This document shows, piece by piece, positions 60,535 through 60,690 of a stretch of DNA of 64,000 nucleotides. The notes under the pieces are model-generated. The model did not search any database and was not told the origin of the DNA. It was given only the letters and a program-made list of their open reading frames with translations. Source of the DNA: a virus (Duplodnaviria > Caudoviricetes); the IMG/VR virus record IMGVR_UViG_3300042479_000799, positions 1 to 64,000 of that record, one strand, 5' to 3'. The position numbers and the translations under genes are program-made. Every line of letters starts with the position of its first letter. Position 1 is the first letter of the stretch.

Positions 60535-60609
60535 TGGAGCGATATCTCGGACTTACACCGGCCTTGTGGACTGGAAGGCCCACCGTGCTCCTCATGACAC
60601 TAATATCGC
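60535..60609 (-). tRNA. atypical tRNA-Gly-like RNA (UCC-like, 8-nt anticodon loop)
   Basis: GCGATAT/ATATCGC acceptor, U73-CCA, GTGT/GCAC D-arm, GTGGG-CCTTCCAG-TCCAC, T-loop TGTAAGT. Confidence 0.6.
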
Positions 60610-60617
60610 ATTAAAAC

Positions 60618-60690
60618 TGGAGCGAATCCGAACTTTGCATTTCGCCTTTTAGTCTGGTAGACTAACGTGCCCTCTTTACACTTGATTCGC
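60618..60690 (-). tRNA. atypical tRNA-Gly(ACC)
   Basis: GCGAATC/GATTCGC acceptor, U73-CCA, TTAGT-CTACCAG-ACTAA anticodon arm, non-TTC T-loop. Confidence 0.7.

Follow-up and report, generated by a model that had tools for sequence, protein, structure and literature searches.

To our knowledge, transfer RNAs (tRNAs) dedicated to a task outside the ribosome have so far been established only for staphylococcal cell-wall synthesis. The non-proteogenic (NP) glycine tRNAs NP1–NP3 of Staphylococcus aureus and S. epidermidis serve as glycine donors for FmhB, FemA and FemB; in their T-loops TGC or TGT replaces TTC, and the first three pairs of the T-stem are weak, which lowers the affinity for EF-Tu, while glycyl-tRNA synthetase (GlyRS) charges them fully (PMC7826273). 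The binding of glycine by EF-Tu demands especially tight T-stem pairs at 49–65, 50–64 and 51–63 (PMC7826273). Glycyl-tRNA is also consumed by the Mom enzyme of phage Mu, which transfers the glycine of Gly-tRNA-Gly to N6 of adenine in double-stranded DNA, accepts all three E. coli tRNA-Gly isoacceptors, rejects Gly-tRNA-Ala and depends on the essential residues R111 and S124 (Silva et al. 2026, PMC13219725). Here we describe two neighbouring elements, A and B, on the minus strand at 60535–60690 of a 64-kb stretch of viral DNA (IMG/VR record IMGVR_UViG_3300042479_000799, positions 1 to 64,000; the window), a piece of a large A+T-rich phage with about 30% G+C. Both belong to a family of phage glycine-tRNA look-alikes that is conserved and has gone unannotated. 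Their sequences make it probable that they are charged with glycine and yet are not ordinary elongators. More tentatively, we propose that they are dedicated glycine carriers kept out of translation, whose glycine may go to a Mom-type DNA-modifying transferase. The broader idea, slightly more speculative again, is that non-proteogenic glycyl carriers are supplied by large phages themselves, and that these RNAs, no longer compatible with EF-Tu or the ribosome but still substrates of the host GlyRS, feed adenine-hypermodifying enzymes of the Mom type.

Two glycine-tRNA look-alikes and their family

Element A occupies slot 1 (60690..60618, minus strand; 73 nt) and is predicted by RNAfold to form a cloverleaf. 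Its 7-bp acceptor stem (GCGAAUC/GAUUCGC), followed by U73 and an encoded CCA, leads through AA to the D-arm GUGU-AAAGAGG-GCAC and, after a single G, to the anticodon arm UUAGU-CUACCAG-ACUAA, in which 5 bp close a loop with the anticodon ACC (an alternative closure gives 7 bp and a 3-nt loop). The segment AAGG then connects to the T-arm CGAA-AUGCAAAG-UUCG, which has 4 bp (CGAA/UUCG) and the 8-nt loop AUGCAAAG. Element B, in slot 2 (60609..60535, minus strand; 75 nt), likewise has a predicted RNAfold cloverleaf, with the acceptor stem GCGAUAU/AUAUCGC, U73 and CCA, the linker UA, the D-arm GUGU-CAUGAGGA-GCAC, a G, the anticodon arm GUGGG-CCUUCCAG-UCCAC, AAGG and the T-arm (C)CGG-UGUAAGU-CCG(AG). 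The anticodon arm of B spans 18 nt and can be drawn as 5 bp with the loop CCUUCCAG or as 6 bp with the loop CUUCCA, and its T-loop UGUAAGU sits atop three Watson–Crick pairs with mismatches at C50.A64 and G49.G65. A 7-nt anticodon loop with U33 is present in A (CUACCAG); the loop of B has 8 nt. An initial annotation, made from the letters alone, had listed a GCGA start, a GUGU/GCAC D-stem, U73-CCA, a perfect arm with ACC, a second anticodon loop of 8 nt that shrinks to 6 nt when C-G pairs, and T-loops that lack UUC; all of these were found again on the minus strand.

Neither element was picked up by standard tRNA searches. RF00005 gave no match over 60535–60690, even at E ≤ 10 (family threshold 29 bits), and the look-alikes of relatives were likewise unmatched. 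ARAGORN called neither A nor B at default settings; with -ps80 (80% thresholds) A was called in the wrong register and B was never called. A covariance model built from B-type copies only (R1) scored A at 51.9 bits and B at 98.7 bits in the window. Failure of tRNA finders is what would be expected if A and B were decaying tRNA-Gly pseudogenes or processing punctuation for the tRNA array in which they lie, a reading to which the family as a whole lends hardly any credence.

The look-alikes comprise at least 30 distinct sequences from IMG/VR and lake metagenome contigs. Three pattern scans located the pair or a single member in 21 IMG/VR contigs (36 copies, 16 distinct), at a constant position in an array that is the same in each, and a metagenome scan of lake contigs added further variants. 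DNA of this phage type was found in lake and freshwater metagenomes from about 15 studies. Comparison of the pair with 50,697 cultured phage records by blastn returned no homologue, and Microcystis phage Mel-JY01, the nearest cultured relative (polB 45% identity), yielded no R1 match. Of 16 additional SpoU-linked loci searched with R1, L052 alone held a copy; several of these loci stop short of the array end.

Conservation within the family follows the helices of a tRNA. Across 21 distinct B-body sequences, 95.4% of the cloverleaf cells are paired and nine pairs show two-sided changes; none of 500 shuffles reached the observed covariation values, and slid controls fell far lower. Acceptor pairs 1–3 are fixed as G-C, C-G and G-C in all 21 B bodies and in all A-type copies, acceptor pairs 4–7 covary, and so do the anticodon-stem pairs (five of five). 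U73, CCA and the D-arm are invariant among the B bodies, and C35C36 is retained in all but one (L180b). Among the A orthologues, compensation is seen in the acceptor stem (GCGGGUC/GACCCGC) as well as in the anticodon stem (UUGGU/AUCAA and CUGGU/AUCAG). Because of this covariation the pseudogene reading was rejected: the helices are kept 95–100% paired through compensatory changes, with acceptor pairs 1–3, U73, CCA and the D-arm invariant across many contigs from at least 15 studies, and the glycine identity set would be superfluous in mere punctuation.

The bacterial GlyRS determinants are G1-C72, C2-G71, G3-C70, U73, C35 and C36 (PMC7826273). Both A and B contain the full set, in agreement with their first description as glycine-type tRNA paralogues with GlyRS determinants. 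The constraint on the acceptor end, U73, CCA and C35C36 is of the kind expected for charging and not for decoding.

Departures from an elongator tRNA

The 5-bp T-stem with a 7-nt U54-U55-C56 loop, which gives a 12-bp acceptor/T helix, is absent from both A and B. The three Watson–Crick pairs with C50.A64 and G49.G65 recur as the T-stem of the B body, with a clean 4-bp stem in variants L005 and L121b. Across the family the T-loop is of the UGC/UGU type and has 7, 8 or 13 nt, the longest form arising through a 6-nt insertion and the 7-nt forms reading UGCAAGU or UGUAAGU. The anticodon arm of slot-1 copies is always 17 nt, with the loops CUACCAG, CUUCCAG, CGACCAG or CGUCCAG. Slot-2 copies have arms of 16 nt (5 bp and AUUCCA) or 18 nt (5 bp and CCUUCCAG, the form in the window) and never 17, and their anticodon loops accordingly have 6 or 8 nt and never 7. 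G33 occurs in two lineages (L005 and L144), and in contigs from RNA libraries the T-loop insertion and the 16-nt arm appear as natural population variants. The variation in loop length is unlike a decoder, and the preserved stems are unlike a pseudogene. On sequence, A and B are distinguished by having G55 together with a T-stem that is short or mismatched and with loops that vary in length.

The altered T-arm has a close counterpart in staphylococci. A pattern made from the T-loop and 3′ end of B, scanned against one genome per bacterial species, led to 27 Staphylococcaceae loci (Staphylococcus, Macrococcus and Mammaliicoccus) with one to four tandem NP genes each, and the T-loops of these genes, UGCAAGU or UGUAAGU, are letter-identical to the loop type of B. 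The TGC/TGT triplet is found in B (GGTGTAAGTCC), in relatives (GGTGCAAGTCC) and in A (ATGCAAAG). The staphylococcus-like altered T-arms suggested at the outset were confirmed. R1 scored the NP genes at 37–46 bits, a likeness that arises mainly via the T-loop, against 17–20 bits for the proteogenic tRNA-Gly of the same loci. We regard the resemblance as a functional analogy and not as shown homology. In two relatives of the phage (G001 and G002), no FemAB, Acetyltransf_6 or LPG_synthase_C (MprF-type) gene was found, and a search for GlyRS genes in the same two genomes was also negative. Outside the Staphylococcaceae, the UGCAAGU T-loop was seen in tRNA-Gly(UCC)-like genes of bacterial genomes and, together with U73, in tRNA-Cys(GCA) genes of several bacteria and metagenome-assembled genomes (MAGs); the loci concerned are L194 and L294 (Streptomyces), L242 (a Verrucomicrobiota MAG), L073, L241, L258, L279 and others.

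An alternative that keeps A and B in translation is that they are odd but working elongators, A (A34) reading GGU and B reading GGA, with loops remodelled to dodge tRNA-cleaving defences. Two sets of observations favour this and weigh against a role outside the ribosome. First, the anticodons ACC and UCC match the two dominant glycine codons of the phage, GGU (58%) and GGA (34%), which keeps the decoder reading alive; the other anticodons of the array suit the phage's preferred A-ending codons, and the window and most related loci contain no canonical tRNA-Gly. Second, many of the tRNAs that ARAGORN calls in related jumbo phages (G001, L032–L037; L006; L121) lack UUC in the T-loop, which has UGC in those for Gln, Asn, Asp, Tyr, Glu and Leu, AGC in those for Ile and Phe and AUC in those for His and Lys. 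Functional-looking tRNAs of these phages thus also have G55, and G55 alone is no mark of a non-ribosomal role. In addition, the RNA-repair set of the window (Rnl1-like and Rnl2-like ligases, kinase, phosphoesterase, cREC and a TrmH-like methylase) fits a conflict over tRNAs, and phage tRNAs are known to evade tRNases by changes in their loops (PMC10264068).

We nevertheless consider the elongator alternative unlikely. The slot-2 loops of 6 or 8 nt and never 7, the T-loops of up to 13 nt, the G33 of two lineages and the T-stems of three to four pairs, mismatched at the EF-Tu contact pairs, all speak against it, as does the finding that tRNA-Gly(ACC) is shunned in nearly all organisms (PMC6720975). 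Moreover, complete or larger relatives also have canonical tRNA-Gly(GCC) and tRNA-Gly(UCC). The CheckV-complete relative G004 (295.8 kb), which is syntenic with the window at 77–88% nucleotide identity over 22 kb, carries both in a second array, with UUC T-loops, 5-bp T-stems and U73, and also holds one A-type look-alike. L162, syntenic with 53.8–59.8 kb of the window, combines a canonical tRNA-Gly(UCC) with a B-body look-alike bearing ACC, and G001 (303 kb) combines a canonical tRNA-Gly(GCC) with a look-alike that has G33. The canonical tRNA-Gly genes of G004 and L162 make the look-alikes redundant for decoding, and the idea of a nuclease-escaping GGU decoder, raised in the initial annotation, lost ground with the GCC and UCC genes of the complete relative.

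Other tRNA genes with unusual loops were noted. G001 has two tRNAs each for Tyr(GUA) and Asn(GUU), of which one has a canonical T-loop and the other a G55 T-loop, and the same genome carries a transfer-messenger RNA and tRNA-like genes whose anticodon loops have 6 or 8 nt. In L093, L095, L082 and L114, which are probably viral arrays, a G55-type tRNA-Gly adjoins a canonical UUC-type tRNA-Gly; in L093 the two share the anticodon UCC.

The 8-nt anticodon loop of B also recalls sufD, a +1 frameshift-suppressor tRNA-Gly with an extra anticodon-loop base. By this reading, B would decode a four-base GGAN codon and so serve programmed frameshifting in a phage gene. The window copy does have the classic form, a 5-bp stem with an 8-nt loop, as do about half of the carriers, and glycine identity is common to both; unlike sufD-type suppressors, however, the phage RNAs have a non-canonical body, and their orthologues differ in loop length (6 or 8 nt). 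The loop has 6 nt in the slot-2 orthologues of sister phages (about half of the contigs), whose bodies are otherwise near-identical, both loop forms occur among the RNA-library variants of one population, the B body is predicted to be unfit for EF-Tu, and no frameshift-requiring gene was identified. A suppressor role, put forward early on for the 8-nt loop, is thereby weakened and appears very improbable.

Mom as a candidate user of the glycine

The product of Mom, N6-carbamoylmethyl-adenine, shields phage DNA from host endonucleases. Mom genes (PF25680) were detected in relatives of the phage: two copies in G004 (169 and 145 bits), one in G001 (149 bits), one in L162 (80 bits), where it lies 9 kb from the look-alike and adjoins an Rnl1-like ligase gene, and one in the L045 contig, which is 85% identical to 35–49 kb of the window. 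Equivalents of R111 and S124 are conserved in these homologues. Among the 50,697 cultured phage records, Mom was detected in 331. In two short metagenome contigs outside this array family that were chosen by T-loop pattern alone, L092 and L117, a G55-type tRNA-Gly(UCC) overlaps or abuts a Mom open reading frame (ORF), with Mom scores of 144.7 and 53 bits, respectively. The Mom-domain frame runs across the tRNA-Gly(UCC) gene in both (L092, 151–939 with the tRNA at 169–243, minus strand; L117, 993–1598 with the tRNA at 1179–1254, plus strand), the tRNA gene lying at the 3′ end of the frame in L092 and near its 5′ end in L117.

These observations are consistent with the following mechanism for A and B as carriers. 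They would be transcribed along with the array and freed in the normal course of tRNA maturation, with CCA already encoded. The host GlyRS would charge them because its identity elements are kept. Binding to EF-Tu and the ribosome would be poor, owing to an acceptor/T helix of 11 pairs, or 12 with two mismatches, and also to G55, the variable T-loop length and the 6- or 8-nt anticodon loop of slot 2. The glycyl ester would consequently be left for a non-ribosomal transferase, the likeliest user being a Mom-type GNAT, presumably encoded elsewhere in this phage, that makes N6-carbamoylmethyl-adenine in double-stranded DNA. A 300-kb genome with 70% A+T could in this way be spared competition with its own translation for Gly-tRNA. 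The initial annotation had suggested a GNAT as the recipient of the glycine; a non-ribosomal transferase of GNAT type is still what we favour, but the GNAT that it named (44874–45305) found no support as the partner. The encoded protein (143 aa) is of a generic Acetyltransf_1 kind and matched neither Mom nor Fem; in the PDB it gave nothing beyond weak matches to N-acetyltransferases, none of them of toxin type.

Several findings speak against the link to Mom. No Mom was detected in the window, either by Pfam on 74 ORFs of at least 110 aa or by a six-frame search with the Mom hidden Markov model, and none was seen in the ~16 kb past the window end that were covered by stepwise exact-protein look-ups. 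The window maps to 278–296 kb and 0–20 kb of G004, whose Mom genes are at 54 and 223 kb. The Mom-carrying relatives are mutually related, so that the co-occurrence represents few independent events, and G002 (73% complete) and G003 (26% complete) are without a clear Mom. Around the best 80 IMG/VR Mom loci, R1 found no look-alike in the 3-kb flanks, which indicates that adjacency of look-alike and Mom is not general. Finally, Mom takes ordinary host isoacceptors, and a dedicated carrier is thus not required.

Two further ORFs were considered as Mom candidates. The 172-aa ORF at 54962–55480, at the site of the Mom gene of L162, is not Mom-like. A 241-aa ORF in L006 (5604–6329, minus strand) matched DruA at 24.6 bits and Mom at 12 bits, both below threshold and too weak to use. 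The latter lies inside the tRNA array of G002, ~450 nt upstream of its two look-alikes, and bears the Mom-like motifs NHxSY and GxxGxVYRAxNW; a homologue is absent from the window.

A role outside translation could also be defensive. Toxins specific for Gly-tRNA-Gly exist. They are mentioned in the text to Fig. 5 of the Mu Mom paper (PMC13219725). A and B might then be decoys or sponges, tRNA-Gly mimics, glycylated or uncharged, that stay off EF-Tu and soak up a host factor, such as a Gly-tRNA-Gly-acetylating GNAT toxin of the TacT/AtaT2 type or a tRNA-Gly nuclease. The conserved acceptor end and the NCCA loop are the parts that such enzymes would read, and the surroundings are rich in tRNA repair and modification genes. 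Nonetheless, no data link the family to a defence system, a cognate host system is not known for this phage, and the co-occurrence at gene level was seen with Mom instead. We therefore judge a decoy role improbable, somewhat more so than that of an unusual elongator, and prefer the glycine-carrier reading.

Genomic surroundings and comparison with described systems

The tRNA array that holds A and B (60443..63879, minus strand; ARAGORN and Rfam) includes nine canonical tRNAs. Its order is Arg(UCU), an HNH gene insertion, Lys(UUU), Glu(UUC), a wcaG-like RNA, two Met, an Ile(UAU)-type tRNA, Leu(CAA), Leu(UAA), A, B and Met(CAU), so that the pair is positioned between Leu(UAA) and the final Met, and this order is identical in related contigs. 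The canonical members, three CAU tRNAs among them, all have GGUUCRANUCC T-arms with UUC T-loops, and CCA is encoded in each. Four RNA libraries yielded contigs that span 60206–61967, A and B included, which shows presence in such libraries and is not proof of transcription; these contigs cover the array and not the adjoining ORF at 59874–60170, and the uncovered part was not used as evidence.

Several members of the array and of its counterparts have features of their own. The insertion between tRNA-Arg and tRNA-Lys encodes a 574-aa protein with helix-turn-helix repeats and two HNH domains (62029–63753, minus strand) that is missing from the same site in most relatives. The wcaG RNA motif (RF01761) match at 61405–61509 (minus strand) is below threshold (32.9 bits; gathering score, 42) and is flanked by tRNA-Glu and a CAU tRNA; a GDP-mannose 4,6-dehydratase is also encoded in the window, at 31363–32499. 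The tRNA with anticodon UAU (60963–61054, minus strand; 92 nt) is class II-shaped with a long variable arm; 92–94-nt forms of it are conserved (L001 7347–7440, L002 4510–4601 and others), and a second, 77-nt UAU tRNA is also present in many relatives. The tRNA-Leu(UAA) gene is split by a group I intron (RF00028, ~71 bits) in relatives (L001 8293–8478 and L162 11306–11494), while that of the window has no intron; a tRNA-Leu(UAA) with a group I intron is also a cyanobacterial trait. L001 further contains a 111-nt CAU tRNA with an insertion within the anticodon loop (9502–9612), and the array of L144 includes a CUA-anticodon (amber-reading) tRNA labelled 'Pyl' by ARAGORN (7635–7710, plus strand) and a tRNA-Cys, beside the look-alike with the loop CGUCCAG.

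In addition to a T4-type family B polymerase, a clamp loader and Hoc-like and tail proteins, the window encodes a series of RNA repair and modification proteins, all on the minus strand: a metallophosphoesterase (34469–35248), a cREC cyclic-phosphate receiver domain (36683–37063), a SpoU/TrmH-like (Gm18-type) methylase (41369–41902), an Rnl2/PHA02142-type ligase (48517–49533), an AAA_33 kinase (50291–50749) and a T4 Rnl1-like ligase (53823–54926). A 2′-5′ RNA ligase-like gene lies directly past the window end (L413 5356–5877), and a TrmH-like gene is found ~2 kb upstream of the tRNA array in seven relatives.

If the carrier reading is correct, phages would tune the aminoacyl-tRNA pool for more than codon supply, and Gly-tRNA would be shared out between protein synthesis and the disguise of DNA, as it is between translation and the cell wall in staphylococci. 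Hypermodification of DNA by Mom, a tRNA-dependent process described only recently, would gain a second, RNA component, and a class of broken-looking tRNA genes passed over by annotation pipelines would be explained. The family also illustrates from nature the extent of remodelling that a tRNA can undergo with synthetase identity kept, including an 11-bp acceptor/T helix, anticodon loops of 6 to 8 nt, G33 and 13-nt T-loops, which could be useful for orthogonal tRNA design.

Among described systems, the defence-evading phage tRNAs resemble A and B in being array members with unusual loops in a genome with tRNA repair enzymes; they keep a canonical cloverleaf, a 7-nt loop and decoding, whereas A and B do not (PMC10264068; PMC11555353). 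The Mom system of phage Mu shares with the mechanism proposed here the consumption of Gly-tRNA-Gly outside translation and the specificity for the tRNA-Gly body. However, Mu uses the host isoacceptors, and a phage-encoded carrier is not described in the Mu Mom paper (PMC13219725); in the present case, Mom genes were seen in relatives and not in the window.

The staphylococcal NP tRNA-Gly combine, like the phage RNAs, a complete GlyRS identity set and U73-CCA with a UGC/UGU T-loop triplet in place of UUC and a T-stem weakened at the EF-Tu contact pairs, the last being a prediction on the phage side. Some NP genes, too, escape ARAGORN, and canonical tRNA-Gly is found in the same genome both in staphylococci and in relatives of the phage that carry look-alikes. 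The two groups differ in the D-arm, where the phage GUGU-CAUGAGGA-GCAC keeps GG and the staphylococcal D-loop is without it, and in how the T-stem is weakened, which is by shortening or mismatches in the phage (G.G, C.A, C-G, or 4 bp) and by A-U richness in the NP genes. The phage anticodon loops, with ACC or an off-size 6 or 8 nt, are also unlike those of the NP tRNAs, and the carriers are phages of lake bacteria in one case and staphylococci in the other.

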